A stretch of DNA of 64,000 nucleotides, taken from IMG/VR virus record IMGVR_UViG_3300022468_000500; one strand, given 5' to 3'. The notes below the pieces were generated by a model, which was given only the letters and a program-made list of their open reading frames with translations, searched no databases and was not told the origin of the DNA. The translations under genes were made by a program, and so were the position numbers. This DNA comes from a virus (Duplodnaviria; Heunggongvirae; Uroviricota; Caudoviricetes). Shown here in pieces: positions 4,153 through 60,535 of this stretch (its first letter is position 1; every line of letters starts with the position of its first letter).

Positions 4153-5523
4153 TTAACCTACACGTGCACGAATTTCTGCAAACGTTGTAGTGTTAACTAA
4201 ATCGCCATTTACATAGCGAGTACGTAGTTGATCGTGTTCTAGCGCTTCATCGGTTAGTGGCACATTGACCAGTTCACCTGCGTCATTACGGACCACACAG
4301 AATAGCCCACGTAGGCTAGACTTTCCGGAGTCAGTAATAGGGTCCTTATAAACGTCACGCCATTCAGACTCACCAGCTACCTTAATAGCTGAGCACTTCA
4401 TAGCAAACTTACAGGTGTCACGATTTACCATTTGTAGTAGTGCACCACCTTGACCGAACAATACGTTATCAGCACTAAATCCAGCCATCTTCATGCAAAA
4501 AAGAATGGAACGAATGTTAGCGTGGTTGATACCATCGCCTTGTAGTACACGAACATTATTCAGTACACGATAGCCCTTACTATTAGTAGTGCTACCAAAA
4601 TACTTTTCTAGGATGTATAGACACTTTACTACCACTTCACTAGGTTCGCCCGAGTCGGGTCGAACAACAAGCATAGCACCACTAGCAAGGACTTCGTCCT
4701 TTAGCACAGTACCCCATAGCTTGCAGGCTTCGTAGATATTATAGCTATCACTAACTGCTGATACAATACCTCCTTGCACAGCATTCTTACGAACCATATT
4801 GCGGTAGGCTTCTACTTCGTTTTCACGACCCCAGCTGGTCACAGTGCTGTGTTCCATAGCAGGTACAGAAAAAGCTACATTGGTATCGCCATATACTTCT
4901 TCAATGTCTAGCATTGAGATAGCAGTATCTGTACCACGGAATACTGCTAAGTGAGCTGAGCCGCCAATACGTGCACTTTCGCCGCTAGAAACGCCGCGAG
5001 CACCGAAATCATGTAGTTTGAAGTCGATAATGCTAGGATCGCCTGTTTCTTCTAGGTACTTCTCGATAATACGACGACTAGCTAGACTATTAGACGCTAC
5101 CGTAGTAGGGTACCAAATAGCACGTAGCAGCATAGTTTCGAAGAAACTAGTTAGCCAACCAGACTTCCAATCAGTATTAACTACTGTTAGCATCACGGTA
5201 CCTGGCTTTACGATAGTACCCTCATCTAGTGCCTTGATATGTAGAGGTAATACGCCACCATATTCATTAACAATGTAATCCCAGCCAGCACGGTTAAACG
5301 GTTCGCCATGTGCTGTGATAATACGTTCTGCCTGATCTACTTCGGCCTTAGTAATAGGATTAGCAAGCCAGGTCTTGAGGAAACGTTGCGTTCCCATCAT
5401 TACGAGTTCATCATACTCCCCGCCCCGAGAAGCAATGTATGAATAAACATATTCAGTACCTGGAGGATACTGATTAAACTGAGAGAACTTATAACTATCA
5501 GCCTCTAGAATTCGATTTTGCAT
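4153..5523 (-). CDS. nadV: nicotinamide phosphoribosyltransferase (NAMPT/NadV)
   Basis: Near-complete set of NAMPT signature blocks: DSYK, YPPGT, KLHDFGARGVSS, GTDT, SVPAMEHSTVTSWG, SDSYNIY, RPDSGEP, NSKGY, QGDG, FGQGGALLQ. Confidence 0.92.
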   Translation of the reverse strand: MQNRILEADSYKFSQFNQYPPGTEYVYSYIASRGGEYDELVMMGTQRFLKTWLANPITKAEVDQAERIITAHGEPFNRAGWDYIVNEYGGVLPLHIKALDEGTIVKPGTVMLTVVNTDWKSGWLTSFFETMLLRAIWYPTTVASNSLASRRIIEKYLEETGDPSIIDFKLHDFGARGVSSGESARIGGSAHLAVFRGTDTAISMLDIEEVYGDTNVAFSVPAMEHSTVTSWGRENEVEAYRNMVRKNAVQGGIVSAVSDSYNIYEACKLWGTVLKDEVLASGAMLVVRPDSGEPSEVVVKCLYILEKYFGSTTNSKGYRVLNNVRVLQGDGINHANIRSILFCMKMAGFSADNVLFGQGGALLQMVNRDTCKFAMKCSAIKVAGESEWRDVYKDPITDSGKSSLRGLFCVVRNDAGELVNVPLTDEALEHDQLRTRYVNGDLVNTTTFAEIRARVG

Positions 5524-6061: not shown

Positions 6062-7105
6062 TCAAACGCGAACGAATGATTGAATAATGTCGTAGTGATC
6101 CTCAAACAAATTAGCTGACTTAACTTGGCTGATCGGTACCCATTCAGCCTTTGCGGCGTCATCCATGCCTTTGACCTTTGGTAGGTCAATGCTATCTGTT
6201 AGCTTAATGAAATGAGCGTGTGTAATCGTACGACCACGGGCACTACGATCAATGTGATCAAACACCTTAGTAGTTACAATACTACCTTTTAGCACCTTGT
6301 CTGGTACTTTTAGACCAGTTTCTTCACGTAGTTCACGAATACAAGCAGATTCAATACTTGCATCTGTACCGGCATTGAAGAACCCACCAGGCAGTGCCAT
6401 TAAACCTTTGCCTGGTTCTGACTTGCGCTCAATCATTAGTACGTGACCAGATTGAACAACTACCGCATCTACAGTAACGAACACAGGAGGATAAGCTAGA
6501 CCCTCGAACTGTTTCTTGTAAGCTGTAATGTACTCACGTTCACGAATAAGTTGATCGTATTCTTTACTATTTAGGAAACCTGACAGAAACGGCATCGAAC
6601 TTGTGGGAATCACACCTTCGATGAACTTTAGGTTCACATTGCGACGGAAATAAATATCGCGAATAGTGCTGGCATCAAGCGGTTCTAGGAGCTCAACATT
6701 TTCTTGCTCCCATTGTGGAAACCACCGTAGGTAATCGCTAGAGCTATCCTTAATATGGCCTATTACACCGATGCGATCACCAGTATAACTGTACTTACCT
6801 ACTAGTTGCTGAATACGAGAAATCCAAGCATTATCATCATAAGCAGTGTCAATGTTACCTAGAATGGTAAACGATGCGTCATATGTTTCGCTTAGACGAC
6901 GCTCTTTAATCGCTCCAATTATTAGTGCTTGGCGCTCAACGAAATTAAACGGATTTTTGTAGGTACGTGGACGATCAACTGATCCCACAATGACAATAAC
7001 GCGCTTGGCAAGTTGCGCAGCGCGTTTCAGGGTTTCTACGTGCGCACTATGTAACATTTGGAAACGTCCAATATACACTAATACGTCATACTTCTTTTGG
7101 GTCAT
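6062..7105 (-). CDS. nadM: bifunctional NMN adenylyltransferase / Nudix ADP-ribose pyrophosphatase (NadM-like)
   Basis: N-terminal nucleotidyltransferase motif GRFQMLHSAH; C-terminal Nudix box GGFFNAGTDASIESACIRELREETGL. Confidence 0.85.
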   Translation of the reverse strand: MTQKKYDVLVYIGRFQMLHSAHVETLKRAAQLAKRVIVIVGSVDRPRTYKNPFNFVERQALIIGAIKERRLSETYDASFTILGNIDTAYDDNAWISRIQQLVGKYSYTGDRIGVIGHIKDSSSDYLRWFPQWEQENVELLEPLDASTIRDIYFRRNVNLKFIEGVIPTSSMPFLSGFLNSKEYDQLIREREYITAYKKQFEGLAYPPVFVTVDAVVVQSGHVLMIERKSEPGKGLMALPGGFFNAGTDASIESACIRELREETGLKVPDKVLKGSIVTTKVFDHIDRSARGRTITHAHFIKLTDSIDLPKVKGMDDAAKAEWVPISQVKSANLFEDHYDIIQSFVRV

Positions 7106-7273: not shown

Positions 7274-7348
7274 TGGTAGGGTCGCTGAGATTCGAACTCA
7301 GTTCTCATCCGTTAAGAGCGGAGGCTTCACCGTCAAAGTTTCGTCCCT
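7274..7348 (-). tRNA. tRNA candidate (anticodon possibly CUU, Lys)
   Basis: T arm CTGAG-TTCGAAT-CTCAG, acceptor AGGGACG/CGACCCT (one mismatch), CCA encoded; anticodon assignment uncertain. Confidence 0.4.
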
Positions 7349-7537: not shown

Positions 7538-7689
7538 TTATTTACCTTTAAAATTATATTGCGACATACAAATACCGAGCTATGCTCGTACAAGATTCAT
7601 CTCTCTGCATGCTATTACTGTGTTCTTGTCACACGCAAATAGAAAAAACGAGAACAAATCGCATTAGAAAGAGCACCAGCTCATAAGCC

Positions 7690-7760
7690 TAGGAATCGAA
7701 CCGCGGCCTCTTGGGTTTTGGTAAGAGAAGTATCTAACACTATCACTACGTTTATATGAA
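7690..7760 (-). ncRNA. degenerate tRNA-like element
   Basis: TTCGATTCC T-loop motif but no consistent cloverleaf. Confidence 0.25.
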
Positions 7761-7804
7761 ATAGGTGAGAACAGTAAAGTTGGGTATTGTCCTCCTTGAC
7801 CACT

Positions 7805-7885
7805 AGGACACGATGGAATCGAACCATCTCGGGCTTTTAATACCAATAAAAATGAAGTAACCAACTTAAACACTACACCATATGA
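7805..7885 (-). ncRNA. tRNA-like element (T arm GATGG-TTCGATT-CCATC) with unresolved 5' half
   Basis: Perfect T arm; 5' region carries the GTAGTGT...GTTACTTC box seen in other tRNA-like elements here. Confidence 0.3.
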
Positions 7886-10567: not shown

Positions 10568-10828
10568 TTATCCTCTAACAGTAGAGGTTACTTTAACCTC
10601 TACTGTTGTATTCAACTTTACATTAAGTTCTTCGCCAAGAGCGTAAAACTTAACAGCTTTTTTATTTACGTATTCTTGTAGCAGATTAACATCTGAAACC
10701 ATAGCAAATTTTTCTACAGTTACTGGATAACTGGCATTATAACTACCACGATTACCCTCATATGGATCATAATGATGCTCTGTCTCTTGCCACGTAACTA
10801 AAAATTTATTCGGTTTGTTGCTTAGCAT
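10568..10828 (-). CDS. hypothetical protein
   Basis: 86-aa ORF. Confidence 0.35.
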   Translation of the reverse strand: MLSNKPNKFLVTWQETEHHYDPYEGNRGSYNASYPVTVEKFAMVSDVNLLQEYVNKKAVKFYALGEELNVKLNTTVEVKVTSTVRG

Positions 10829-11396
10829 ACTCTTTTTCTAATGCTTCGGCACGTAGATGCAGTCGAAGCTCAACTTCGTCGCTATGCATCCAAATGTCCT
10901 TATTATCTAGTAGACTTTGAATTTCTTCCGGTGTTAGGAAATGCTTGTAAATATCGCCTAGGAACTTAGTAGACCATTCACGTTCAAATACTGCCTGGTC
11001 GTATTGTTCTCCACCTTTACCTACAATGCCACCGCTATAGTTGTGGAACATCCATAAAGAATGAGGAGTAATTTCCCAAGAATCAGCACATAGGAAGATC
11101 ATAGTTCCAGCACTCATGCAAGAACCCTCAACACTACAGGTAACGTGTGCTTGTGTCTCGCCTAGAACTCTAGTAAATTGAAGAGCTGTATCTACATCGC
11201 CACCACCAGTATTAAGGTGGATTTTAACGCTATCATCAGGACCGGCATGACGAATTTCGTTAAACCATTCTACATAGTTATCTGGACTAAGAATAGGACC
11301 ACTAAGATAGTATTCCAGGCTTTGTGCTAGATTACGCTTAAATGAGTTACTACCCATTCCACTTAACATTGCTAATCCATCTAGGTTATCGTCCAT
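10806..11396 (-). CDS. ClpP-like serine protease (S14 family)
   Basis: HLNTGGGDVDTALQ...GSCMSAGTMIF resembles the ClpP core around the active-site Ser. Confidence 0.55.
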   Translation of the reverse strand: MDDNLDGLAMLSGMGSNSFKRNLAQSLEYYLSGPILSPDNYVEWFNEIRHAGPDDSVKIHLNTGGGDVDTALQFTRVLGETQAHVTCSVEGSCMSAGTMIFLCADSWEITPHSLWMFHNYSGGIVGKGGEQYDQAVFEREWSTKFLGDIYKHFLTPEEIQSLLDNKDIWMHSDEVELRLHLRAEALEKEYAKQQTE

Positions 11397-11784: not shown

Positions 11785-12099
11785 TTAAATTTCGAGCCAG
11801 GTATCATCGCCGCCTACGCGGAGACCATCGTGCTCGTCGGGGTTGTAATCTTCGAAATGGCCTTCGATATTATCAGTGTAATGATCATCGCTATAATCAG
11901 CTTCTTCATCATAATCCTCAGACATTTCAGACTCAGGGTAGTACCCGAATGATTCAGCATGTTGCTTTGCAGCTTCCCATGCGTAATCATCCAGTTCATC
12001 TTGAGTCATGTCAACAGGAACGAGATAGAATTCTGCGCTATCAGTGCCTGCACAGCCTGCGTACATACGCAGAACCATTTTCTTAAATTCTTGTTGCAT
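11785..12099 (-). CDS. highly acidic small protein
   Basis: About 35% D/E with aromatic residues (DELDDYAWE...EDYDEEADYSDDHYTD); DNA-mimic-like composition. Confidence 0.45.
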   Translation of the reverse strand: MQQEFKKMVLRMYAGCAGTDSAEFYLVPVDMTQDELDDYAWEAAKQHAESFGYYPESEMSEDYDEEADYSDDHYTDNIEGHFEDYNPDEHDGLRVGGDDTWLEI

Positions 12100-12290
12100 G
12101 ATATTCTTTAATTATTGAAAGATATAATTATATCTAATTTATACTGTTTGTTCAAGACAAAATTTATAATGCTGAGTCCGACTATACGAAGGTTTCAGCC
12201 TCGCATTTCTACATATGCCTATACACCTAGTCAGGGCTTTAATGCTGTAACTTCGTGACTAGCGAAGTGCGGGCTCACCATTATAAATTT

Positions 12291-12379
12291 TGGCGGAAGA
12301 TAGAGGGTTCGAACCTCTGCGCCCCGTTAGGGACTTCGGCTTAGCAAGCCGACGCTTTTACCAATTCAGCCAATCTTCC
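12291..12379 (-). tRNA. trnS(gcu): tRNA-Ser(GCU), class II
   Basis: Perfect acceptor GGAAGAT/ATCTTCC, anticodon stem TCGGC/GCCGA loop TTGCTAA, long variable arm, CCA encoded. Confidence 0.65.
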
Positions 12380-12595
12380 GAATATACGAGAACAAGTCGA
12401 AAATACTACAACGGCTTGCGCCACTCGTGTCCTAAACCACTAGACGATAACGGCTTATACTGCCGTTACGGGGATTCGAACTCCGGTTCCGAGTTTGAAA
12501 TGAAGTAAGTATTACCTACACTACGTATGTATGAGAATGTGAGAACAAAGCAACAACAGAGATTTTAGCGCTCTAACCAACTGGGCTACTCGGGC

Positions 12596-12690
12596 TATGT
12601 GCCCAAGGTAGGATTCGAACCTACGACCTCTCGATTAATAGTCGAAGTAACTGTTATCTAACACTACACATAAAAACTGCACAAGAACAG
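12596..12690 (-). ncRNA. tRNA-like element (candidate Y-RNA-like module) downstream of the Ro60 gene
   Basis: Perfect T arm GTAGG-TTCGAAT-CCTAC and GTGTAGTGT/GTTACTTC box but no canonical acceptor or anticodon arm. Confidence 0.3.
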
Positions 12691-12767
12691 AGCTAAACAG
12701 AAATGCTTTCGGCTGGGACCAGCTGCTATACCAATTCGCATACTCCGCAGGTTTTACGCCACGAGAG

Positions 12768-12850
12768 GTAGGACTCGAACCTACAAACGCTTGTTTGAAG
12801 TAACCGTTTATTTCACTATGTGCGTATGAGTTAGCCTAGAATAAGTTAGT
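12768..12850 (-). ncRNA. tRNA-like element (candidate Y-RNA-like module)
   Basis: T arm GTAGG-TTCGAGT-CCTAC; anticodon arm replaced by tetraloop hairpin AAAC-AAGC-GTTT; GAAGTAAC box. Confidence 0.3.
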
Positions 12851-13076
12851 ATAGTGCAATGCCACCAGATGGCAATTTTTCCTGAAGAGAAAAATAAAGA
12901 ATCGAACTTTGAAGTAACTATACAATTCGCAAAGGCTTAGAAAATGGTAGCAACAGTAATGAAATAGTGTGTTTCTGCATAGGTGAAGTAACTATTTCGG
13001 ACAGCATACCATGTTCTAAGCCTTCGCAGGCTTAGAGTACCACTCTTAATAGGACTGACTACCTACACGTGTGGAT

Positions 13077-14402
13077 TTATAGACCAGAAGCTTCTAGCTC
13101 CTGGATGTAAGAGATAACAGCTTCTGAGAAGCCATTAACCTTTTCGTAACCAGCAACGTTGCCAACACCGTTTTGGCAATTGGATACGTTAACAATATAG
13201 TTCTTACCACCGTTCTTAGCTGCTGGCAGTGGATCATGTGTTTGTTCGTCAGTGAACACGATAACACGAGCATGTGGATAGCGAGAGTGAACGTCGCGAA
13301 CCGCAGTACCTAGGTGAGTGCCTCCGTGAGGTTGGCTAGCACTTAGTTGCTCACGTAGTGCGAAACCGCGACCTGCGTTATTCAGATACTTGATCTGATT
13401 AGAGAAAGTAGCAATGGTCACATCTTCACAGATTTCCTGTGCAAGCATAGCTAGAGCAGCAGCTGCATCGAAACGATCTAGCTCTGACTTATCGCTAACC
13501 TTAGGGCCGAACATAGAACGGGACACGTCTACTAGTAGAACGGTCTTACCACGTAGCTTAGGCAGATCAGTACATGACTTGAACATCATGCCTTCTAGCA
13601 GTTCGCTAAGCTGAGGTACATGCTGACGAGCAGCAACGTAACGGAAAGGCAGAACCTTAGATACGTTAACAGTACTTGCGTATTCAGCCATTAGCTGCAT
13701 AGAAACACCACTTTGTACCATATTACGAAGGTTACGGATGAATGCAAGAGCACCCAGCTTGTTTTCCTTCATAAGACGAGTGAACGTCAGACCCTTATCC
13801 GCACCAGCAGACAGTTCAACTTCCCAAGTATCTGGAGTTACCAGAGCCTTATCGGCTACCTTCTTGAACAGGATTTCCTGTTCTGCAGAAGCTGGCTTAG
13901 GGTGAGTCAGGAACATAACATCACGAATGGTGATGGCAGCAGAATTCTTATCCCACTTAGCTAGGCTGTATTCATTGAACTTAGCGAATGCCATTGCCAG
14001 GCCCTTGCGGACTTGGTTGGAGATAGCGCACTTCTTTTCCTGCCAGTAAAGTGCTAGGAAAGTACCCATTTCGTCTGGACGCTGAATCACGGTAGCCAGA
14101 TCAGCTGCCTTCAGGTTACCACGACGAGCTAGTTCACGAGCCAGCAGCAGAGGTACGTGACGAAGATTGTGCTTCGTACGCGCTTCGATCATAAGCTCAG
14201 CTACAGCAGTAGGATGACACTTAGGAACAAGCGTAGAAATTAGTTGTGCTGAAGTAACACCGTCAACATAGAAGGTATCTTCGAACAGCATAGAAGCTAG
14301 CACCATACGACGCAGCTTAACCATATCAGGTTCAGTACGCGTTGCTAGGCCTTCATAGTTTTTAACCATAGGAGCTACAACACGACGATTTACATTAGCC
14401 AT
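13077..14402 (-). CDS. rsr: Ro60-like TROVE-domain protein with C-terminal vWA domain (Rsr ortholog)
   Basis: 441 aa; N-terminal helical TROVE-like region; C-terminal vWA with MIDAS motif DVSRSM, as in Ro60 and Rsr. Confidence 0.75.
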   Translation of the reverse strand: MANVNRRVVAPMVKNYEGLATRTEPDMVKLRRMVLASMLFEDTFYVDGVTSAQLISTLVPKCHPTAVAELMIEARTKHNLRHVPLLLARELARRGNLKAADLATVIQRPDEMGTFLALYWQEKKCAISNQVRKGLAMAFAKFNEYSLAKWDKNSAAITIRDVMFLTHPKPASAEQEILFKKVADKALVTPDTWEVELSAGADKGLTFTRLMKENKLGALAFIRNLRNMVQSGVSMQLMAEYASTVNVSKVLPFRYVAARQHVPQLSELLEGMMFKSCTDLPKLRGKTVLLVDVSRSMFGPKVSDKSELDRFDAAAALAMLAQEICEDVTIATFSNQIKYLNNAGRGFALREQLSASQPHGGTHLGTAVRDVHSRYPHARVIVFTDEQTHDPLPAAKNGGKNYIVNVSNCQNGVGNVAGYEKVNGFSEAVISYIQELEASGL

Positions 14403-14691
14403 TTTAATTTGCTTTCTTTTTGTTAAATTTAGTTAGTTTTAGAGATAGATGTTAATCGTAAACAGTTGCACACTTATTTAATTTTTAGCCAGATAACTCA
14501 GTGCATAAAACTGGGGTTCTTGTTTTAACTGTCAAGTCAGGTTGCTAACAAATTATTTCTAATAGTCAGCGGCTAGTATAATGAAGTAACTGTATTTAAT
14601 GAAACTGCTTTCGCTCATCTCAAACTGCAATACTATCTTCTAAAACATTAATTATACAGATTTTTGATTATGATTTCAAGTTTAAATTTAC

Positions 14692-14947
14692 TATGGTCAC
14701 TCAACGCTTGAATTTGAGGTCGCCCCGCTCTTCATGGCTGGTCCTTGCATTAGCCGGCTTTTCAAGTATTTCAGTTGTTCCACTGTAGCGACTGTGACCA
14801 TATCTAGTAACACTAATTAGGAGTAAGGCTCAACTTAAACCTCCCACACTGCACAGGTTCTTTACCCTATTGTGCCCCGTCTTTCACAGCAGTAGTTGAG
14901 CTTCTGCTGTACCTCACAGATAAGTGTTAATTAGTGTTACTAGATAT
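14692..14947 (-). ncRNA. highly structured nested-hairpin RNA element upstream of the Ro60 gene (Y-RNA candidate)
   Basis: 18-bp perfect inverted repeat atctagtaacactaatta / taattagtgttactagat enclosing about 95 nt with inner IR gctcaact/agttgagc; additional IR atggtcac/gtgaccat. Confidence 0.4.
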
Positions 14948-15023
14948 GGTAGGTGTGGAGGGATTCGAACCCTCGGTAGTCCGGTTAAAAGCCGGGTGCT
15001 TTAAGCCTCTAAGCTACACACCA
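14948..15023 (-). tRNA. trnK(uuu): tRNA-Lys(UUU)
   Basis: D stem GCTT/AAGC, anticodon loop CTTTTAA, T arm GAGGG-TTCGAAT-CCCTC, CCA encoded; T1-T72 terminal mismatch. Confidence 0.55.
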
Positions 15024-15041
15024 ATAATTTTGTTGAACGAT

Positions 15042-15242
15042 TTAGCCGTCCCAACCTTCGTCAATGTTGATAGTGATTCCGTCGCCTTCTACAATATAAC
15101 CGTCACCTTCGTCCATAGCAATGTCCTTTCGGTTTAGTTCTCCGCGCTCGCTCTTGTAGGGTCGAGTGTGAGACCCTGCATGACGCCGCATTGCATGCGC
15201 AACATAAGGATTGCGTTGTTTAATCTTTAATTGTTTGCCCAT
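15042..15242 (-). CDS. hypothetical protein
   Basis: 66-aa ORF. Confidence 0.3.
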   Translation of the reverse strand: MGKQLKIKQRNPYVAHAMRRHAGSHTRPYKSERGELNRKDIAMDEGDGYIVEGDGITINIDEGWDG

Positions 15243-15384
15243 TATATTTCCAAAGAATAAGAATTATACATGAAAGGGAAACTTTAATCAAGAATAAATT
15301 TTCGCAACCCTTATATTGTTTTACTGTTTTGTCCAGCGAATATAAGTATTATACGCGCTTTATAGACACAAATCAAGTGTAAAT

Positions 15385-15864
15385 TTAGCCAATCAAATCG
15401 CCTAAATTATTAATTGTTTTATCCACTAGTATGTTAGGAGTACGATACAGGGGATGGCAATCGTGATACGCAGTTATTGTCAATCTAGTAGGGTATGAGA
15501 TTCTTGGCTCATTGCTGATAGTCCAAGGACCCCAGTCTAATCTACCAGTAATACGGTAGTAGCCTAATGAATCTTTTTTAACTACTTCTACAGGAATTGG
15601 TGTACTCGAAACACCACGTAAATCTGTAAGCACTGCATAGGCGCCGACAAACGAACAAGTTCGAGTTTTCATCATGTTGCCATATACAACGATGACGCCT
15701 TCTTTTGTAATTGGATATGCATCCACTACTTTGAACTCAGTTAGTACTGGCATCCATCTTTGTTCAACAGATGGGCCATAAGCCAACACACTAAATAGCA
15801 TCATAAGCGCTAGTAGTACTGTTGTAATAGCGGCTAACAGAGCACGAATAAATCTGGTTTTCAT
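15385..15864 (-). CDS. membrane-anchored protein
   Basis: N-terminal hydrophobic helix ALLAAITTVLLALMMLFSVLAY. Confidence 0.4.
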   Translation of the reverse strand: MKTRFIRALLAAITTVLLALMMLFSVLAYGPSVEQRWMPVLTEFKVVDAYPITKEGVIVVYGNMMKTRTCSFVGAYAVLTDLRGVSSTPIPVEVVKKDSLGYYRITGRLDWGPWTISNEPRISYPTRLTITAYHDCHPLYRTPNILVDKTINNLGDLIG

Positions 15865-18093: not shown

Positions 18094-18555
18094 TTACGGT
18101 TTAAATTTGTGTAGATACACTGTATTATTAGATAGTGTTTGTTCAATAATGGCTAGAACAACTTGCTCATTTAATCCGCCTAGCCCTGCTCCGATCAGAT
18201 AGGGAATATGAATCGGTAGCTTAGTACCTTTTACGGTTTCAAGGCAAGACTCTAGTGCGTCATAACTAGCATACTTTTTACCATCTTTACCATAAAATTC
18301 TTGGGTAAAGCAATTAGCAATGTAAAACTCTTTATTTCGGAAATCGGGGTAGTACGTTACCACTCTTCCTAATAAATTCTCTGAATCATGCCAATACTTT
18401 TTACATAACGCAGCATACGGAATAAATATGTTTGGATACTTATCACGTAGCTGTTTGGCTACACCACTACCCATTACGCCTTGGCAATTAACACCTTGAA
18501 GGATAACACCTTCAACTACATCACATATATTACTGTTTTCTTTAATTTCAATCAT
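18094..18555 (-). CDS. macro domain protein (TARG1/OARD1-like ADP-ribose processing)
   Basis: GVNCQGVMGSGVAKQ and IGAGLGG motifs resemble the HCISEDCRMGAGIA and glycine-rich loops of TARG1-type macrodomains. Confidence 0.55.
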   Translation of the reverse strand: MIEIKENSNICDVVEGVILQGVNCQGVMGSGVAKQLRDKYPNIFIPYAALCKKYWHDSENLLGRVVTYYPDFRNKEFYIANCFTQEFYGKDGKKYASYDALESCLETVKGTKLPIHIPYLIGAGLGGLNEQVVLAIIEQTLSNNTVYLHKFKP

Positions 18556-19187
18556 TCTACTGTGAATTTATTATGTTTTCTGCTATTATCTGCTAAACTA
18601 AGGTATTGTAAATTCTCCAAAACGTGTAAGCCACTAACTAATTCGCCTTGAAGCGGTACAATATGATCTACTGTCATATTCTGCGGACAATTATTATAAA
18701 ACTGTTTAATTAAATCTAACTGTGCCCAAGTAGGCGTTCTTAGTAGCTTATTAGATCTGTATTCAGATTGTCTGCCTGCTTGTGTAGATCCAGTAGTACT
18801 TGTATGGCAGGTTTTGCAATAAGCATTGATGCCATTTTTCTGAGATTTATTAGCTCTAAATTCAGAATACTCGTACACGTTTTTGCAATGACTACAATAT
18901 TTATGCCCTACACTATTTAGTATATATGTACATGGCTTACAACCCGTAGTAGTAATAACACGGCCAGGAAATAATTTTTTAAGCAGTTTTGCTGTAGAAT
19001 TGACTGATAACCCTAATTGATTAAGATTATACGTATGTTGGGATATAGTCTTGATAAAGTGTTCTACTGATAGCGGACACTCTTTATTACCATATTTACG
19101 CGCGTTATTGCCAGCTTCTTCTATTATAGAAATATAATTAGCGGAAACTATACCTATAGCTTCCGATATTGCAGTTAGTTTATCCAT
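18552..19187 (-). CDS. HNH homing endonuclease
   Basis: Cys-rich zinc-finger region plus DHIVPL...N...N HNH core. Confidence 0.7.
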   Translation of the reverse strand: MDKLTAISEAIGIVSANYISIIEEAGNNARKYGNKECPLSVEHFIKTISQHTYNLNQLGLSVNSTAKLLKKLFPGRVITTTGCKPCTYILNSVGHKYCSHCKNVYEYSEFRANKSQKNGINAYCKTCHTSTTGSTQAGRQSEYRSNKLLRTPTWAQLDLIKQFYNNCPQNMTVDHIVPLQGELVSGLHVLENLQYLSLADNSRKHNKFTVE

Positions 19188-20394: not shown

Positions 20395-20480
20395 ACTTAA
20401 GGGATTGAACCTTAATGAATCCACTCAACCTGCGTATAATTGTGGAACGCCTGACGTTATAGAGTAAAATAAAAATTCTG
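20395..20480 (-). ncRNA. tRNA-like element with 10-bp terminal stem
   Basis: T arm TTAAGG-TTCAATC-CCTTAA; termini ttttactcta / tagagtaaaa pair over 10 bp. Confidence 0.25.
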
Positions 20481-20486
20481 ACCTCT

Positions 20487-20580
20487 AAGGAGTGGACTCG
20501 AACCACTGACCTTTACGTTGGATTTAAATTGCATATGCAAACCGTAACGCTCTTCCATCTGAGCTACCATGAGGATTTGG
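20487..20580 (-). ncRNA. tRNA-like element with palindromic insert in the anticodon region
   Basis: Canonical D arm TAGCTCAGATGGAAGAGC and T arm AGTGG-TTCGAGT-CCACT, but stem TTACG/CGTAA encloses 28 nt (ATTTAAAT plus TTGCATATGCAA palindromes); acceptor halves do not pair. Confidence 0.3.
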
Positions 20581-22915: not shown

Positions 22916-23005
22916 TGGTGGAGGCGGAAGGACTTGAACCTTCACAGTCTTATTTGTGTGCGGCTGATTTACAGTCAGTTGAGCTCTCCAGCGCTCAGCA
23001 CCTCC
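22916..23005 (-). tRNA. trnY(gua): tRNA-Tyr(GUA), class II
   Basis: Acceptor GGAGGTG/CGCCTCC, D stem GAGC/GCTC, anticodon loop CTGTAAA, long variable arm, T arm GAAGG-TTCAAGT-CCTTC, CCA encoded. Confidence 0.65.
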
Positions 23006-47374: not shown

Positions 47375-47412
47375 AATAGATAATGCCCCGGATTATCTCC
47401 GGGGCATCCTCA

Positions 47413-49143
47413 TTACATGAAAATAATCTGTCGCTGGCCGTTAACGTAGGTTACCACGTTTGCAAGCTGCCAGCTACTGGGGCCAATGTTATAACCCATT
47501 TCCAGCGAACCCGATACGCCCGCAGTGTAGCATGCGCCGGTAATGCTGGGGGTGTGTGTATGGCCCGTATTCATGGGGATTCCCAATGTACGGAACTGGG
47601 CAGGGCTGCCCCGGCTGCCGTTGATACCCGTATGTCCATGACAGCCCATTTCAACGCCCGCCATCATAACGGATTCGTCAGTTTCATGGAATACGATTTG
47701 TTGCGAGTATCGGCCACCCCCGATTTCATAATATGCGAATTTCAGCATATTAAAATCAGAATTGCCAGTTTCTGCAATATGCGTATAAAGTGCAGTAGTG
47801 CAGCGCAAGTAAGTCAGCGCGTTTACTGGGTCCGTTTTGAAGTCGGCATTTTTCAGCCACGTATTAATCGCCAGATCATGATTCGATTCGATAACGTGGA
47901 CATTTACCCCAGTTTCTGCAATCGCGTCAATAATGCGCGCCACGGTTTTAACGTCGCCCTCTACCGTATTATTAGCCACGGTTTGCGCGAACATAAAAGC
48001 GCAATCCTTAACGTTATGATGGTTCCGGCTGGAAAAATCCATTACATCATGCAAAAGCACGTTTTCAGGCTGAAACCGGGCAATTTCAGCGCGGATTTTA
48101 TCGAGATTTTCAGCAGTCATTTTTTCCGCGTGAATATCCCCGAATTGCAGCGCTTTTACATCGCCATCTGTCTGGTTAAATGCCCCTTGCGCATTAAAAA
48201 ACATATCCTCATCAAAGAAACCGGTAGATTCTGGCATCAGCTCCAATTGACGCACCACGGCCGGACCAGTACCGCGAGTATCGACAACCAAAGCGCCAAT
48301 GTTATGTTCAGTAGCGGCCACCGCGCCAGCTTTGCGCGTGATGTAATTACGCTTTGTAATGCTGCCCGTCGAATACAGCACCTTACCGCGTGCATGCTTG
48401 AGCGAAGCCGTGCATTTGAGGGAGATTTTCACAGCCGGGATGATAATGTCAATGCCTGCGGGCGTGATACCCTCGAAACCCGAAAGCGGATTTTTTGCCG
48501 TGGGCAGTACGTTTGCCTGTGCAACAAAATCAATTTTGCCCGCGATACGGATTTGTTCATTGACAATGTATTGCACAATTTCAGGGGCATAATAAATGCC
48601 ATCCTCGAATTGTTCCACGGATTGGAACCCGTTTTTGTTGTACGTGGTTTTTGCCACCAGCAACCGCGCGCCAGTATGTTCACAGTAAGAACGCAGCGCA
48701 CCCAGCATTACCGCATCCACATCGGTGTTATTTTGCGCCGTAGTTACCACGTACAACCCAGCAGGCAATTCGGTCACATGCGCGCCGGCATCATCTACGC
48801 CAGCAGAAACCGGCTTTGCTGCGTCCTTTTCTTGCTTTTCGATGGCTTTGCGCGCCTTATCCTGTGCCACCAGATGACGCCGCAGGGTTTCGCTTTCCAG
48901 AATCGCATTAACTGCCTCGATTGGCTGATTTTCGTAATCGGCCAATTGCATCATTTCCTTGACAATTTCGGCCTTTTTATCGGCCTTCTTTGCGCGGAAA
49001 TAGCCCAGAGTTTGCGCAGTAATGATAACTTCTTTTTCGTTCATGGTTAGCCTTAAAATACCGGATACCGCCGGATTATCGCGGATTGTAGCGTTTTGCT
49101 GCAATGAGGAAATTATAACACGGTTTTTTGAGGAAACCGCCAA
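47413..49143 (-). CDS. A1: A1-like large metallophosphoesterase-domain protein (T5 pre-early A1 analogue)
   Basis: 576 aa; C-terminal half has ordered calcineurin-like motifs GDIHA, HDVMDFS, ESNHD, CHGHTG, GHTHTPS; size and context resemble T5 A1. Confidence 0.65.
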   Translation of the reverse strand: MAVSSKNRVIISSLQQNATIRDNPAVSGILRLTMNEKEVIITAQTLGYFRAKKADKKAEIVKEMMQLADYENQPIEAVNAILESETLRRHLVAQDKARKAIEKQEKDAAKPVSAGVDDAGAHVTELPAGLYVVTTAQNNTDVDAVMLGALRSYCEHTGARLLVAKTTYNKNGFQSVEQFEDGIYYAPEIVQYIVNEQIRIAGKIDFVAQANVLPTAKNPLSGFEGITPAGIDIIIPAVKISLKCTASLKHARGKVLYSTGSITKRNYITRKAGAVAATEHNIGALVVDTRGTGPAVVRQLELMPESTGFFDEDMFFNAQGAFNQTDGDVKALQFGDIHAEKMTAENLDKIRAEIARFQPENVLLHDVMDFSSRNHHNVKDCAFMFAQTVANNTVEGDVKTVARIIDAIAETGVNVHVIESNHDLAINTWLKNADFKTDPVNALTYLRCTTALYTHIAETGNSDFNMLKFAYYEIGGGRYSQQIVFHETDESVMMAGVEMGCHGHTGINGSRGSPAQFRTLGIPMNTGHTHTPSITGACYTAGVSGSLEMGYNIGPSSWQLANVVTYVNGQRQIIFM

Positions 49144-51583: not shown

Positions 51584-51970
51584 TCGACCCTATCTGATTC
51601 AGTGTTACAAACTGTTACACCTATCAACGCGCATCCATAAAGCCACGTTCCCATTCATGCCATTCTGCCGTGCCCATAGCATAAGGGTTAGAGTGTGTAC
51701 GCTGTACGCCTGCGGGTTGATTCTTAATAATCATCCACGTATTGCGCCCGCCGATGTATGCTTGGGACATAGTGTTACCCTTAGTTGTATCGTTGCACAT
51801 GATACGATTATATCACGGTTTCATTACGCATACAAAGTAGTATGCGAAAGGTCCGCCGATAAGTACAGCCATAAGGCATGCATGTATCAGATCACGCGCC
51901 AGGTACTGCAGTTCTTTTTTCATCATGGTATGAATTCTAACACAGAAAAATTGAAATTTGCAAAAGAAAA

Positions 51971-52047
51971 GTGTAACAGTTTGGGGTGACAGCTTTACAA
52001 ACTGTTACACATTATTCCTTGCGAAATTTTGTCAGGTGTGGTACAAT
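51971..52047 (+). promoter_or_regulatory. 12-bp inverted-repeat operator (gtgtaacagttt ... aaactgttacac) followed by promoter TTGCGA-N17-TACAAT
   Basis: IR at 51971-52010; -35 at 52019, -10 at 52042 with TG extension; TGTTACA half-sites also at 51604 and 51614. Confidence 0.45.
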
Positions 52048-58597: not shown

Positions 58598-60535
58598 ATG
58601 AAAACTAAGGCGTTTGCCAAAGATAAGATTCTACACCTTGATAGCGTATTCCTAAAAGAAGATTCGGCCGAAGGCCCAGTTTTTATTAGCGGATACGCTT
58701 CTACTGTAGATATCGATAGAGCTAATGACGTTGTTCCTGCTCATGTGTGGGCTAAGGGCATCGAAAATTACCTAAAGAATCCAGTTATTCTAGCGCAACA
58801 TGACCATTCAAAGCCGATCGGTAGAATGGAAGAGCATAGAATTGACGAAAAGGGCCTGTGGATTAAGGCCAGAATCTCCCCTGCAGCAGAACATTATTTT
58901 GGACTAATTAAAGACGGTGTAGTTACCGCCTTCAGTATTGGTTTCAGAGTTCTAGACGCTGCTTACGATCACATTACAGATGTATTTGTGGTAAAAGAGC
59001 TAGAGCTTACTGAAATCAGTGCAGTAGCTGTCCCTTGTAACCCTAACACGCTGTTTAGTTTATCAAAAGCATTTGATAGCGAACAAGCGTATAACGATTT
59101 TAAAAAGCAATTCACACCCGAAAGCTCGTCAGCTAAAGGGCTCGACTCCTCAACGGAAGTGGATAGCACAAACCCTAAAAAGGAATTTAATATGAATGAA
59201 GACGAAATCAAGGCTATGGTAGCTGCTGCTGCTAAACAAGCTGCTGCCGATGCACTGGCAACTAAGGCTAAGGCTGATGCCGAAGCTGCTGCAGCTGCTA
59301 AGGCTAAGGCCGATGCTGATGCTGAAATTGAAGCTCGCGTAAAGGCAGCTGTAGCTGCTTCTGTAAGCTCAGGTCAATCCGGTGCAGAAAAGCTACTAGC
59401 TGAAGTTGAAAAGCGTATCAACGACGCTACCGAAGCTAGCAAAAATGTTCTAGCTGGTCTAGAAGCTGAACTAGCTCAAAAGGCTAGCGAACTAAAGGCT
59501 ATCCAAGAATCAAAGATGAAGTTTGGTCAAGATGGCGCAGGTTCTACTTATACAGAACGTGAAACAGCTTTCCTACTAAGTAAGATGAGCGGTAAGAGCA
59601 TTGAAGCAACCAAGTATGGCCGCTCAGTGATCGAAAAGGCTGGTCCTCACCAAGCAAGTCAAACATGGGAAACAGAAGTATCCCTAAACATGGAAAACGA
59701 AGTACGTCGTCGTCTAGTAGTAGCTCCTACGCTACGTCAGATTCAGATGGCTACTAACGTAATGACCCTACCTATCAACCCAGAAGCTGGTTATGGTACA
59801 TGGGTAACGAACGCACAGTTCGGTACCTCTGCTTCAGCTGGTGCGGCTCAAACCCATCAACTAAAAGAACTAACTATCAACGCGTACAAACTAGCTACTA
59901 GTGAATACCTAGCTTACGAAGAAGAAGAAGATAGCCTATTAGTGCTAACTCCTATCATCCGTGACGCTATGATTCGCCGTGTTGCTAAGTCCGTTGATAA
60001 GGCATTCCTAGTAGGCGTAGGTTCAGGTGCTGATCCAGTTAAGGGTCTAGCTATGTTCGACACAGTATCAGCTGTTACGTCACCAGTTGCTAATAAGGCA
60101 ACCGTTGCTAACATGATTGCTCTACGTAAGGACCTAGGTGCATGGGGTCTATCTCCATCAGAACTAGTGTATGTAGTTTCTACAGACGTTTACTACGATC
60201 TATTAGAAGACACGCTATTCCAGACAGTAGATAAGATCGGCGATAAGGCTACTCTACTAACTGGTCAAATCGGTGCTATTGGTAACACTCCAGTTATCGT
60301 AAGTGCTGAACTACCAGCTAAGGCTTCTGGTTCTACTGGTGCTGCTACTAACGTAGGCGCTCTAGTTTATCACAATGGTAACTTCCTAGTAGGTAACCAA
60401 CGTGGTATGCGTTTTGATACACAAGACCTAGTTGAAACACAACGTAAGGTAATGGTAGCTAGTCTACGTACTGGTCTACAACAAGTTACTACTAACCTAG
60501 GCGGTGCAGTATCCGCTTTCCGTTGGGTAGTGTAA
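58598..60535 (+). CDS. fused prohead protease - scaffold(delta) - major capsid protein
   Basis: 645 aa without internal stop: N-terminal about 190 aa HK97-type prohead protease-like; central A/K/E-rich coiled segment; C-terminal about 330 aa capsid-like; strong terminator follows. Confidence 0.65.
   Translation: MKTKAFAKDKILHLDSVFLKEDSAEGPVFISGYASTVDIDRANDVVPAHVWAKGIENYLKNPVILAQHDHSKPIGRMEEHRIDEKGLWIKARISPAAEHYFGLIKDGVVTAFSIGFRVLDAAYDHITDVFVVKELELTEISAVAVPCNPNTLFSLSKAFDSEQAYNDFKKQFTPESSSAKGLDSSTEVDSTNPKKEFNMNEDEIKAMVAAAAKQAAADALATKAKADAEAAAAAKAKADADAEIEARVKAAVAASVSSGQSGAEKLLAEVEKRINDATEASKNVLAGLEAELAQKASELKAIQESKMKFGQDGAGSTYTERETAFLLSKMSGKSIEATKYGRSVIEKAGPHQASQTWETEVSLNMENEVRRRLVVAPTLRQIQMATNVMTLPINPEAGYGTWVTNAQFGTSASAGAAQTHQLKELTINAYKLATSEYLAYEEEEDSLLVLTPIIRDAMIRRVAKSVDKAFLVGVGSGADPVKGLAMFDTVSAVTSPVANKATVANMIALRKDLGAWGLSPSELVYVVSTDVYYDLLEDTLFQTVDKIGDKATLLTGQIGAIGNTPVIVSAELPAKASGSTGAATNVGALVYHNGNFLVGNQRGMRFDTQDLVETQRKVMVASLRTGLQQVTTNLGGAVSAFRWVV

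Follow-up and report, generated by a model that had tools for sequence, protein, structure and literature searches.

A probable YrlA-type Ro60/Y-RNA module in the tRNA cluster of a phage distantly related to T5

Conservation of Ro60/Y RNA particles extends from bacteria to humans, and human Ro60 is an autoantigen in lupus and Sjögren syndrome. The function of these particles in bacteria and phages is poorly defined. The locus described here raises the question of whether a Ro60-like gene and the structured DNA on either side of it, found in a 64-kb window (the whole stretch of phage DNA that was analysed), together encode such a particle. We conclude that the locus is very probably a bacterial YrlA-type Ro60/Y-RNA module, lying in the tRNA cluster of a ~106-kb phage distantly related to T5.

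The gene, rsr (13077-14402, minus strand), encodes a 441-residue Ro60 ring protein, an ortholog of Ro60/Rsr, in which a TROVE/HEAT-repeat ring is joined to a vWA domain. Pfam TROVE (PF05731) matches the product with an E-value of 1.1e-9 (38.5 bits against a cutoff of 23), and PHROG 850, annotated as 'RNA-binding protein', matches it with an E-value of 1e-35. The vWA domain with MIDAS motif DVSRSM described in the initial annotation is borne out by Pfam VWA_2 (E 2.1e-7), with the motif at residues 292-297. D292, S294, S296, T362, and D385, which make up the MIDAS DxSxS plus T and D, are invariant across 32 homologs. In a phmmer search of the PDB, Ro60 of phage phiLo (9KOP/9L5Y) aligned with residues 13-438 at an E-value of 3e-22. 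The AF2 model (pLDDT 83.7, pTM 0.73) retrieved Ro60 structures at all of Foldseek ranks 1-13 in the PDB. The nearest solved structure was again phiLo Ro60 (9KOP; TM 0.78, 24% identity), with the Xenopus, human, and Deinococcus Ro proteins at TM 0.58-0.63 and 15-17% identity. TROVE is present in the precomputed annotation of 120 of the 120 homologs listed, and the Ro60 clade to which the protein belongs numbers over 7,800 homologs at E <= 1e-20. The initial annotation had called this ORF a phage Ro60 ortholog, naming beforehand failure in TROVE profile or fold searches as the outcome that would count against it; the ORF is recognized by both. An annotation search showed neither RtcB nor RtcA, the RNA-repair genes, accompanying the rsr locus.

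Directly 3' of rsr, on the same minus strand, lie five head-to-tail Y-RNA-like units, U1 to U5 (13013-12381), followed by a tRNA-Ser gene. The array starts 64 nt and ends 696 nt 3' of the rsr stop codon, within the ~4 kb criterion used for YrlA. Two further units, X7861 and X7750 (7882-7643), are 5.2-5.4 kb from rsr, just beyond that distance. The 21 tRNAs called by ARAGORN in the window are all on the minus strand, as are rsr and the units. The flanks of rsr are indeed ORF-free, as first described, with no minus-strand ORF of at least 40 aa in 12380-13076 or 14403-14946.

Common to all seven units is a two-stem module that covaries and carries conserved boxes. Read 5' to 3', each consists of an outer stem, a bulged U with RGYG, and an inner stem of 7 bp, both stems being variable; the invariant UUACUUC comes next, followed by a variable head and the 3' box YUGUUCY. 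The bulged U with RGYG sits where the published GNCGAA box does and is a variant of it. Among the unit stems, 22 of 31 fold as outer stem, 1-nt bulge (a U in 20), and RG/CY pairs, and the spacers between units are AU-rich and 4-10 nt long. The GAAGTAAC box, which reads GUUACUUC as RNA, occurs nine times on the minus strand of the window and once on the plus strand, with six of the nine minus-strand copies in 12000-15100. Four copies of the bipartite box TAGTG-N7-12-TTACTTC are present, each of them on the minus strand, compared with an expectation of 0.12. The letters GTAGTGT appear when the minus strand is read (ACACTAC on the plus), so that both boxes lie on the RNA strand of rsr. The recurring box reported initially on both sides of the gene is real within the array, whereas the upstream hairpin units lack it.

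The heads range from absent to fully tRNA-like. Those of U3, U4, and U5 have the permuted tRNA layout that defines YrlA, with a T arm, a closed acceptor-like stem (AS), and a D arm; counted over the seven units, such a head is present in three to four. U1 has no head, the heads of U2 and X7750 are degenerate, and X7861 lacks the AS. The perfect T arms noted initially lie on the minus strand at 12608-12624 (GTAGGATTCGAACCTAC) and 12768-12784 (GTAGGACTCGAACCTAC), and a third was found at 12469-12485.

U4 (12534-12672, minus strand) is by layout a canonical YrlA-type Y RNA. Its outer stem AUGUG/CACAU is followed by box 1 (UAGUG), the inner stem AUAACAG/CUGUUGU, and UUACUUC, after which come a V hairpin, the T arm, the AS, UA, the D arm (GCCCAGUUGGUUAGAGC), and box 2 (UUUGUUCUC). 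The head pairs as GUAGG-UUCGAAU-CCUAC, CUUGGG...CCCGAG, UA, and GCCC-AGUUGGUUA-GAGC, with G15:C48 as the tertiary pair. U3 (12676-12824, minus strand) likewise combines its T arm with a closed acceptor-like stem and a D-like arm, and its A15:U48 is Levitt-compatible. U5 (12381-12529, minus strand) carries T arm, AS, and D arm and ends 1-6 nt short of tRNA-Ser(GCU) (12291-12379, minus strand), which was called by ARAGORN and scores 63.9 bits with Rfam tRNA. U2 (12831-12938, minus strand) has UGCGAA as box 1, and RNAfold gives its head a 4-bp T-like hairpin (AAAG-UUCGAUU-CUUU) and two more hairpins. U1 (12942-13013, minus strand) is a short unit, a stem module with UUACUUC in which both boxes are degenerate; it lies in an extended inverted repeat of 21 nt at 90%, pairing 12929-12949 with 13007-13027. 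Between tRNA-Asn and tRNA-Ile, X7861 (7760-7882, minus strand) has a T arm and a D-like arm, and X7750 (7643-7754, minus strand), in tandem with it, has AUACUUC as its box.

Two custom covariance models together recover all seven units. U3, U5, X7861, and X7750 were left out of the training set of R1, which finds them at E-values of 9e-9 to 1e-3, all on the gene strand: U5 with 47.1 bits (E 8.8e-9), U3 with 37.9 bits (E 1.4e-6), X7861 with 35.5 bits (E 5e-6), and X7750 with 25.9 bits (E 1e-3). R2, built solely from 12 units of other phages, finds X7861 (30.7 bits, E 2.8e-6), X7750 (26.9 bits, E 3.9e-5), U2 (24.2 bits, E 2.4e-4), U4 (22.2 bits, E 1e-3), and, marginally, U1 (18.8 bits, E 0.0099), spanning E-values of 3e-6 to 1e-2. 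Orthologs of U4 in the related loci L010, L018, L007, L004, L003, L001, L016, and L005 score 70-147 bits by R1, and the U2 ortholog in L010 scores 31.7 bits by R2. Two other matches were set aside. An R2 match at 51958-52025 on the plus strand (18.3 bits) lies on the opposite strand, forms a plain hairpin that lacks UUACUUC, and was judged a false positive. An R1 match at 20452-20550 on the minus strand (E 0.26) is no Y RNA either; it overlaps a tRNA-like gene whose anticodon region is expanded.

The scan with the Rfam Y_RNA and YrlA models proposed in the initial annotation came out divided. In a local search, YrlA (RF02553) matches U4 along the entire model (positions 1-114) with 36.7 bits (E 1e-5), and it gives U3 17 bits; the gathering score is 69 bits, so the best match reaches about half of it. 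The metazoan Y_RNA model has no match in 12200-15100 in E-value mode. The sequence features of YrlA are partly present. The units have the long stem between 5' and 3' ends, and U3, U4, and U5 have the full head (T arm, closed acceptor-like stem, UA, D arm, and tertiary-pair nucleotides). The literal GNCGAAN0-1G motif is missing in U1 and U3-U5, and the minus-strand pattern G.CGAA.?G matches at no box position. At the place of GNCGAA the units have U-RGYG-WW, which is UAGUG (UAGUGWW) in U3-U5 and UGCGAA in U2; the relatives L001 and L002 have GGCGAA(A/G) at the box 1 position.

Covariation supports the same architecture. In an alignment of 47 units, which was fitted to the model so that its paired percentages are inflated, 91.9% of cells are paired, compared with 58.6% after shuffling and 40-45% after sliding, and by helix the share is 94.9% for the outer stem, 94.5% for the inner stem, 97.6% for T, 91.6% for AS, and 90.0% for D. 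Double changes occur at all 34 pairs, and the outer and inner stems show all four Watson-Crick types at most positions. The V hairpin is kept tentative, and was not accepted as a firm helix, because it is 77.5% paired by this inflated measure with almost no covariation. Of 55 UUACUUC sites, 24 have a perfect partner of 7 bp with the 3' box after it, compared with 2.4% of random positions. In the close relative L010, whose Ro60 is 91% identical, U1 shows a compensatory A-U to G-C change in its inner stem, the T stem of U3 changes from GUAGG/CCUAC to GUGGG/CCCAC, and U5 has compensatory changes in its T, AS, and D stems. Profile and fold searches, covariance models, and covariation all support the initial proposal of Y RNAs with a terminal stem and a tRNA-like domain beside rsr.

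The same architecture, usually in several copies, accompanies this Ro60 clade in Caulobacter phage CcrColossus, Xanthomonas phages, and bacterial MAGs. Same-strand, multi-copy units adjoin the homologous Ro60 in CcrColossus (6 matches), Xanthomonas phage MET23-P3, IMG/VR contigs, and 11 of 16 bacterial MAG loci. Rfam YrlA stays below threshold in the named phages too (CcrColossus 42.3, MET23-P3 52.3). Judged from these sequences, tandem multi-copy arrays of predicted Y RNAs with graded heads are common in the clade. Near and distant DNA searches of 50,697 phage records had no match to either the locus or the upstream hairpin units, and relatives of the locus among these records were found at the protein level only.

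How the array is transcribed bears on whether the units are separate RNAs. A sigma-70-like promoter, TTGAAA-17-TATAAT (14679-14651, minus strand), matches at 11 of 12 positions, is the best promoter-like site of 11900-15400, and is conserved in L010; it is the likely start of a transcript of rsr, the Y RNAs, and tRNA-Ser. It is followed by the rsr 5' leader, U0 (14403-14650, minus strand; 74% identity with L010). U0 was considered as an eighth unit and is kept as leader: it has neither box 1 nor box 2 in register, and both models miss it. The units could on this layout be cis-acting structures in a long 3' UTR or leader of the rsr mRNA, for instance stabilizers against 3' exonucleases or autoregulatory binding sites for Ro60. 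No promoter or terminator-like site was found between the rsr stop codon and U1-U4; the array has a single terminator-like site on the minus strand, inside U5 (12410-12425); the U0 leader bears one CAGUUACUUC copy (14583-14592); and U1 overlaps alternative pairings with a hairpin just past the stop codon. We nevertheless regard this explanation as improbable. X7861 and X7750 are bona fide units 5 kb from rsr, between tRNA genes, and in other phages the array is upstream of rsr. The units are packed like the genes of a tRNA operon, the array ends at a tRNA, and the characterized homologs, YrlA and phiLo Yrl1/2, are discrete RNAs (PMC4201824, PMC12135203).

The setting also invites the suggestion that the units are decayed or permuted tRNA genes, or segments of tRNA precursors, with no functional link to Ro60. 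They sit in a same-strand cluster of more than 21 tRNA genes, their T arms are near-canonical, and Rfam tRNA matches over U4 with 25.9 bits. This match is below the 29-bit threshold, however, and the acceptor positions are mispaired. ARAGORN called no tRNA in 12380-13076 or 7643-7882, and none of the units forms the canonical cloverleaf with open acceptor stem, anticodon arm, and standard order. Their acceptor stem is closed and their arms run T, AS, D; the boxes and stems that covary are not those of tRNA, and the units recur specifically by Ro60 in unrelated phages and bacteria, even where no tRNA cluster is nearby (MET23-P3). Because of the lack of an ARAGORN call, the permuted order, and the recurrence of Ro60-type stem boxes by Ro60 genes, we consider a tRNA-precursor origin of the signal very unlikely. 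Equally implausible are boxes that act as transcription or processing signals, such as a phage promoter TAGTG-N9-GTTACTTC or RNase sites: a bipartite motif with a fixed spacing of 15-16 nt does precede each unit, but we reject a promoter because the intervening and flanking bases vary while staying perfectly complementary to their distal partner, and the motif does not occur ahead of the window's 21 tRNA genes or its protein genes and is conserved in phages of unrelated lineages and on bacterial chromosomes, always with Ro60.

Upstream of the promoter are two conserved structured RNAs that are not recognizable as Y RNAs. For UpA (14803-14950, minus strand), the structure and perfect closing stem of the ~140-nt unit first described are real, while the stem has 23 bp rather than 18 and the boxes attributed to it are missing. 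The stem, a perfect 23-nt inverted repeat (14797-14819 with 14928-14950), takes in the ACCA end of tRNA-Lys, and the 145-nt unit folds at -54.3 kcal/mol (z -5.5). Compared with L010, its 50 pairs include 3 compensatory changes, 3 G-U, and none broken, the G-U wobbles being valid solely for a minus-strand RNA. UpB (14690-14806, minus strand) has a 9-bp closing stem, a perfect 9-nt repeat (14692-14700 with 14794-14802), and 33 pairs with 2 compensatory changes, 2 G-U, and none broken in the same comparison. Neither UpA nor UpB, nor an element 3' of tRNA-Ser, has an Rfam family in E-value mode, and R1 and R2 have no match to UpA or elsewhere in the pair (14690-14950). As they lack the boxes and model matches and have homologs in the closest relative only, UpA and UpB are not assignable to the Y RNA family.

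For the YrlA-type module, we propose the following mechanism. One precursor comprising leader, rsr, U1-U5, and tRNA-Ser would be transcribed from the sigma-70-type promoter. Host tRNA-processing and single-strand endonucleases would cut the AU-rich spacers, and RNase P would act at tRNA-Ser, its site setting the 3' boundary of U5. A released unit would use its boxed stem to dock onto the outside of the Ro60 ring, in the manner of the Xenopus Ro/Y RNA structure, and its variable head would project outward as the effector-binding or tethering end. The RNP might then recruit a host 3'-5' exoribonuclease (PNPase) or another factor that binds the tRNA elbow, and remodel or degrade structured RNA during infection. 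The effector and the benefit to the phage are suggested by analogy with D. radiodurans, Salmonella, and Thermus phage phiLo. Different heads could give one Ro60 several alternative partners.

A more speculative extension, which we rate as possible but doubtful, holds that the differences among heads are purposeful. Up to seven Y RNAs may then form a toolkit and not redundant copies, each head (absent, T alone, T and D, or a complete permuted tRNA whose V hairpin resembles an anticodon loop) recruiting a different host tRNA-binding factor. As an alternative, the heads could be decoys that bait tRNA-targeting defence nucleases or modification enzymes while the phage tRNA cluster is expressed. 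Linked to this is a reading of origin: the boxed stem (outer stem, U-R-G-Y; GUUCYC, outer stem) may keep the acceptor/U8-R9-G10-Y11 and T-loop remnants, these may be the ones predicted by the dimeric-tRNA origin model, and phage tRNA clusters may be the birthplace of such Y RNAs.

With this locus, a phage distantly related to T5 joins the carriers of Ro60/Y-RNA modules. Comparison with ~30 related loci sharpens the definition, for a large clade of phages and bacteria, of what is by sequence conservation the probable Ro60-binding module: the bulged U with RGYG, the invariant UUACUUC, and the 3' YUGUUCY. The Rfam YrlA model detects RNAs of this clade below threshold only, and arrays with graded heads make it tractable to ask which partners the tRNA-like head recruits. 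Phage loci that pair Ro60 with Y RNAs have already been published (PMC4201824, PMC12135203), so the module does not represent a new type of system.

The closest counterparts are the YrlA-type systems, comprising Salmonella YrlA/YrlB, M. smegmatis YrlA, and the mycobacteriophage and CcrColossus predictions (Chen et al. 2014, PMC4201824; Rfam RF02553). In 254 bacteria and 22 phages, YrlA has been reported on the Ro60 strand and within 4 kb of that gene (PMC4201824). Binding by Ro60/Rsr in vivo and modification of the T and D loops by TruB and DusA are further marks of the YrlA type. As here, these RNAs lie beside Ro60 on its strand, can number more than one per locus, and have a long 5'/3' stem with a conserved box in the 5' strand. 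Their head, too, is a circularly permuted tRNA mimic that runs from the T arm through the closed acceptor-like stem and UA to the D arm, and its 15:48 pair is Levitt-compatible. The CcrColossus Ro60 is 41% identical to the rsr product, and its locus has the same UUACUUC-type units. The YrlA box is GNCGAAN0-1G, whereas here it is U-RGYG-WW (UAGUG in the window); the invariant UUACUUC is additional, and so is a conserved box, YUGUUCY, on the 3' side. The published papers state that in the RNAs of Salmonella and M. smegmatis the 5' strand alone is recognizable. The present locus further differs in having seven units, five of them in tandem, with heads from none to a full tRNA mimic, and in lying inside a phage tRNA operon without RtcB/RtcA.

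Phage phiLo (PMC12135203; PDB 9KOP, 9L5Y) also encodes a Ro60 with adjacent Y-RNA-like genes. It provides an experimental precedent, as its Ro60 binds two phage Yrl RNAs and forms a ternary complex with host PNPase (PMC12135203). Yrl1 and Yrl2, recognized by their CGAA motif and stem-bulge-stem shape, are located upstream of the gene, have no reported tRNA-like heads, and number two compared with seven here; phage lineage and host differ as well. The D. radiodurans Rsr/Yrn1/PNPase complex (RYPER) and metazoan Ro60/Y RNA share with this locus a ring protein and a modular RNA, in which a bulged Ro-binding helix (predicted here) formed from the RNA ends is combined with a distal effector module, and the tether-and-gate mechanism proposed above is drawn from them. 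In Yrn1 and the metazoan Y RNAs, both strands of a GGUCCGA-type helix are conserved, and the metazoan RNAs have no tRNA-like domain.

All features listed in the initial annotation were found, each on the minus strand. The rsr ORF (13077-14402, minus strand) encodes a 441-aa protein with Pfam TROVE (E 1.1e-9) and VWA_2 (E 2.1e-7) domains. A phmmer search of PDB sequences gave a sole match, the Ro60 of Thermus phage phiLo (9KOP/9L5Y; E 3e-22, residues 13-438), with the metal-site (MIDAS) motif LVDVSRSM of the rsr protein aligned opposite LVDVSGSM of phiLo Ro60. When an AlphaFold2 model computed from 32 homologs (pLDDT 83.7) was compared with the PDB using Foldseek, the best 13 matches were Ro60 proteins only, from phiLo (TM 0.78), Xenopus, human, and Deinococcus. 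The proposed Ro60-like ORF thus passed both the TROVE profile and the fold searches on which that proposal depended. Residues D292, S294, S296, T362, and D385 show no variation in the homolog alignment. The family exceeds 7,800 proteins at E <= 1e-20, and tblastn finds matches in 96 phage records, including Ralstonia RsoM2USA (48% identity), Xanthomonas phages (47%), and CcrColossus (41%), with others among Brevundimonas and Caulobacter jumbo phages, to which CcrColossus belongs, and crAss-like phages.

The rsr gene lies among 21 tRNA genes on the minus strand (2776-24264; ARAGORN). Its flanks are free of minus-strand ORFs of at least 40 aa (12380-13076 and 14403-14946), and T arms are present at 12608-12624, 12768-12784, and 12469-12485. 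The 697 nt from the rsr stop codon to tRNA-Ser(GCU) consist of five head-to-tail Y-RNA-like units on the minus strand with 4-10 nt spacers: U1 (13013-12942), U2 (12938-12831), U3 (12824-12676), U4 (12672-12534), and U5 (12529-12381). Across the whole window, the box GAAGTAAC (RNA: GUUACUUC) has nine minus-strand copies, six of them within 12000-15100, and one plus-strand copy. The bipartite motif TAGTG-N7-12-TTACTTC occurs four times, on the minus strand only, against 0.12 expected by chance.

U4 aligns end to end with Rfam YrlA (36.7 bits, E 1e-5 in a local search; gathering score 69), and U3 matches it weakly (17 bits). Read in order, U4 begins with the outer stem AUGUG/CACAU, UAGUG, the inner stem AUAACAG/CUGUUGU, and UUACUUC. 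Next come a hairpin bearing a 7-nt loop, the T arm GUAGG-UUCGAAU-CCUAC, the closed stem CUUGGG/CCCGAG, UA, the D arm GCCC-AGUUGGUUA-GAGC, an A-rich linker, and UUUGUUCUC. YrlA is defined by the circularly permuted tRNA order of T arm, closed acceptor-like stem, and D arm (PMC4201824; bioRxiv 10.1101/312249), and U4 has this order. The nucleotide 5' of the T stem varies together with D-loop position 15: C accompanies G in U4 and U5, and U accompanies A in U3, a pattern that matches the Levitt-pair covariation described for YrlA. The V hairpin (12636-12648, minus strand) has an anticodon-loop-like 7-nt loop, as do orthologous units in four compared loci; it reads CUAUUAA in the window, CUGUUAA in L010, L018, and L003 (the loop of tRNA-Asn GUU), and CUCUUAA in L007.

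Two custom covariance models served as independent tests of the units. R1, trained on five canonical units including U4 and its ortholog in L010, detected U5 (47.1 bits, E 9e-9), U3 (37.9 bits, E 1.4e-6), and two more units at 7882-7760 (X7861; 35.5 bits, E 5e-6) and 7754-7643 (X7750; 25.9 bits, E 1e-3), with unit matches on the minus strand throughout. R2, which covers the stem module only and was trained on 12 short units from other phages with the window and L010 left out, recovered X7861 (30.7 bits), X7750 (26.9), U2 (24.2 bits, E 2.4e-4), U4 (22.2), and U1 (18.8 bits, E 0.01). All seven units were recovered by at least one model trained without that unit, U1 being the weakest. R2 also gave 18.3 bits to a hairpin at 51958-52025 (plus strand), GUGUAACAGUUUG...CAAACUGUUACAC with flanks UUUGCAA/UUGCGAAA; it lacks UUACUUC and was rejected as a Y-RNA unit, being probably an unrelated hairpin or terminator.

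The closest relative found, the Logan assembly contig L010 (Ro60 91% identical), has the same succession of tRNA-Lys, rsr, five units, and tRNA-Ser. Relative to the window, its U3 T stem shows the compensatory change from GUAGG/CCUAC to GUGGG/CCCAC, and compensatory changes also occur in the T, closed acceptor-like (AS), and D stems of U5 and the inner stem of U1. In 47 units aligned to R1, a fit that is biased toward pairing, standard pairs fill 91.9% of cells, against 58.6% in shuffled controls (none of 500 shuffles was as high as the real alignment) and 40-45% with slid partners. Double changes occur at 34 of 34 pairs. The paired fraction is 94.9% for the outer stem, 94.5% for the inner stem, 97.6% for T, 91.6% for AS, and 90.0% for D; the V hairpin is 77.5% paired, with slight covariation. 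An alignment-free check pointed the same way: of 55 UUACUUC sites, 24 could pair perfectly over 7 bp with a partner that lies no more than 230 nt away and precedes the 3' box, compared with 2.4% of 4,500 random positions. The inner-stem 7-mers at UUACUUC sites differ nearly everywhere. The rsr protein is a Ro60, and the RNAs beside it have this architecture.

Of 31 units, 22 have ends that form an outer stem, then one bulged nucleotide (a U in 20 of them) and two RG/CY pairs; an internal loop of asymmetric shape comes next, and after it the 7-bp inner stem. The invariant UUACUUC immediately follows the inner stem, and the 3' box YUGUUCY immediately precedes the 3' strand of the outer stem; no description of either was found in the Y-RNA literature searched. 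Ro60 recognizes metazoan and Deinococcus Y RNAs by a conserved, bulged helix that the two RNA ends form, and by analogy the boxes are a putative Ro60 contact in the window units. The 5' box is UAGUG in 12 units, UGGUG in seven, UGGCG in five, and UAGCG in four. Because some relatives have UGGCGAA(A/G), containing the published GNCGAAN0-1G, in the same box, the UAGUGWW of the window is a position-equivalent transition variant of this motif that departs from the literal consensus. For the RNAs of Salmonella and M. smegmatis, Chen et al. (PMC4201824) state that of the two strands the 5' one alone can be recognized. The box1 heptamer GGUAGUG of the L003 and L004 units equals the sequence that human Y1 and Y4 carry after their Ro-binding GGUCCGA (GGUCCGA-A-GGUAGUGA, GGUCCGA-U-GGUAGUGG; human Y RNA primers, PMC13501136). 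This identity may be a coincidence, since Rfam Y_RNA has no match in the window.

Upstream of rsr, the structured unit initially proposed as part of the module stands as a stem and structure, its perfect repeat measuring 23 nt, but was not recognizable as a Y RNA. In this element, UpA (14950-14803, minus strand), the closing repeat pairs 14797-14819 with 14928-14950, and a perfect 9-nt repeat (14692-14700 with 14794-14802) closes the adjoining UpB (14806-14690, minus strand). Compared with L010, both are about 90% identical with no predicted pair broken, UpA showing three compensatory and three G-U changes and UpB two of each; two changes in the UpA closing stem yield G-U and U-G, valid in minus-strand RNA only. 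A third element directly 3' of tRNA-Ser (12292-12158, minus strand), closed by a 23-nt 91% inverted repeat, keeps 41 pairs in L010 at 73% identity, with 10 compensatory changes, five G-U changes, and no broken pair. All three lack the boxes, gave no match to Rfam, R1, or R2, have no homolog outside L010, and were not counted as Y RNAs. They lie at transcription-unit ends, before sigma-70-like promoters (14679-14651 and 12155-12127), and may be RNase III sites, 3' stabilizers, or unrelated small RNAs. The 23-bp UpA stem takes in the encoded ACCA 3' end of tRNA-Lys(UUU) (14947-15023, minus strand), and its 3' arm AUAUGGU doubles as the 5' side of the stem that closes UpB, so the predicted pairings of the tRNA-Lys 3' end, UpA, and UpB are mutually exclusive and may form a processing switch or RNase III site.

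Multi-copy units on the Ro60 strand recur in the IMG/VR contigs L001, L003, L004, and L006-L009 and in the metagenome contigs L011-L015, whose Ro60 proteins are 60-63% identical and likewise lie in tRNA clusters. CcrColossus has six R1 matches upstream of its TROVE gene and Xanthomonas phage MET23-P3 three, with four UUACUUC units, all on the Ro60 strand; among bacterial MAG loci, 11 of 16 contain units, likewise on the Ro60 strand, in up to five tandem copies. Rfam scores across these loci are 17-52 bits, every one sub-threshold. Given this recurrence, graded-head arrays are a property of the Ro60 clade and not a peculiarity of the window. PMC12135203, on the basis of Chen et al. 2014, already names CcrColossus among phages that have both a Ro60 homolog and Y RNA-like ncRNAs. 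The annotated "tRNA-Gln" of CcrColossus (L016 2173-2240; JX100810.1 109217-109284) lies inside a 69-bit R1 match (L016 2169-2335) and contains box1 and UUACUUC; the tRNA annotation is probably wrong, and the feature a Y-RNA-like unit.

The window comes from a distant T5-like siphovirus, whose fused prohead protease and major capsid protein is 36% identical to those of T5-like Salmonella phages. The 645-aa ORF at 58598-60535 (plus strand) matches head maturation protease (PHROG 80) and major head protein (PHROG 617), and the two appear to be fused, because its tblastn matches in T5-like phages cover two adjacent genes. Contigs with proteins of the same 90% cluster reach 106 kb. A tRNA-like gene at 20489-20568 (minus strand) has good D and T arms and a long anticodon-region insert; Rfam tRNA gives it 33 bits over model positions 6-65, and ARAGORN does not call it. 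Other Rfam-only tRNA matches lie at 7277-7348 (30.8 bits) and 22919-23005 (37.2 bits). Protein genes in the tRNA cluster (minus strand) encode a nicotinamide phosphoribosyltransferase (4153-5523), a NadR-like cytidylyltransferase/NUDIX protein (6062-7105), a Macro-domain protein (18094-18555), an HNH endonuclease (18552-19187), and a ClpP-like protease (10806-11396); the NAD-salvage pair and Macro domain suggest counter-defence functions. Two long predicted ORFs, 47383-49050 (plus strand, 555 aa, no PHROG match) and 47413-49143 (minus strand, 576 aa), overlap almost totally on opposite strands.

For the module, we infer co-transcription, processing, binding, and an effector. Among promoter-like sites of the region, the best, TTGAAA-17-TATAAT (matching at 11 of 12 positions), lies 250 nt upstream of rsr and is kept in L010; no terminator-like site was found between rsr and U1-U4, the one minus-strand site in the array being inside U5 (12425-12410). 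A single precursor of leader, rsr, U1-U5, and tRNA-Ser would be expected from this arrangement. Cleavage of this precursor would occur in the short AU-rich spacers and, through RNase P, at tRNA-Ser. Each boxed stem would then be bound by Ro60 with the unit heads pointing outward, and the RNP would bring in an exoribonuclease of the host, or some other factor that binds the tRNA elbow, and act on structured RNA during infection, by analogy with Rsr/Y RNA/PNPase of Deinococcus and Salmonella and Ro60/Yrl/PNPase of phiLo (PMC4201824, PMC12135203).

Phage Ro60 with Y RNAs is already known and will not surprise the specialist; of note here are the additional conserved boxes and the presence of seven different units within a tRNA operon, and, as a by-product, a Y RNA subfamily that is both divergent and widespread becomes better defined. 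By most criteria, the locus is a YrlA-type Ro60/Y RNA module. It differs from the strict form in the literal GNCGAA consensus and in the Rfam gathering score, below which the units of other phages of this Ro60 clade, including CcrColossus, also fall; it shares with YrlA-type modules the Ro60 fold, same-strand adjacency, the terminal stem, and the T-AS-D head.
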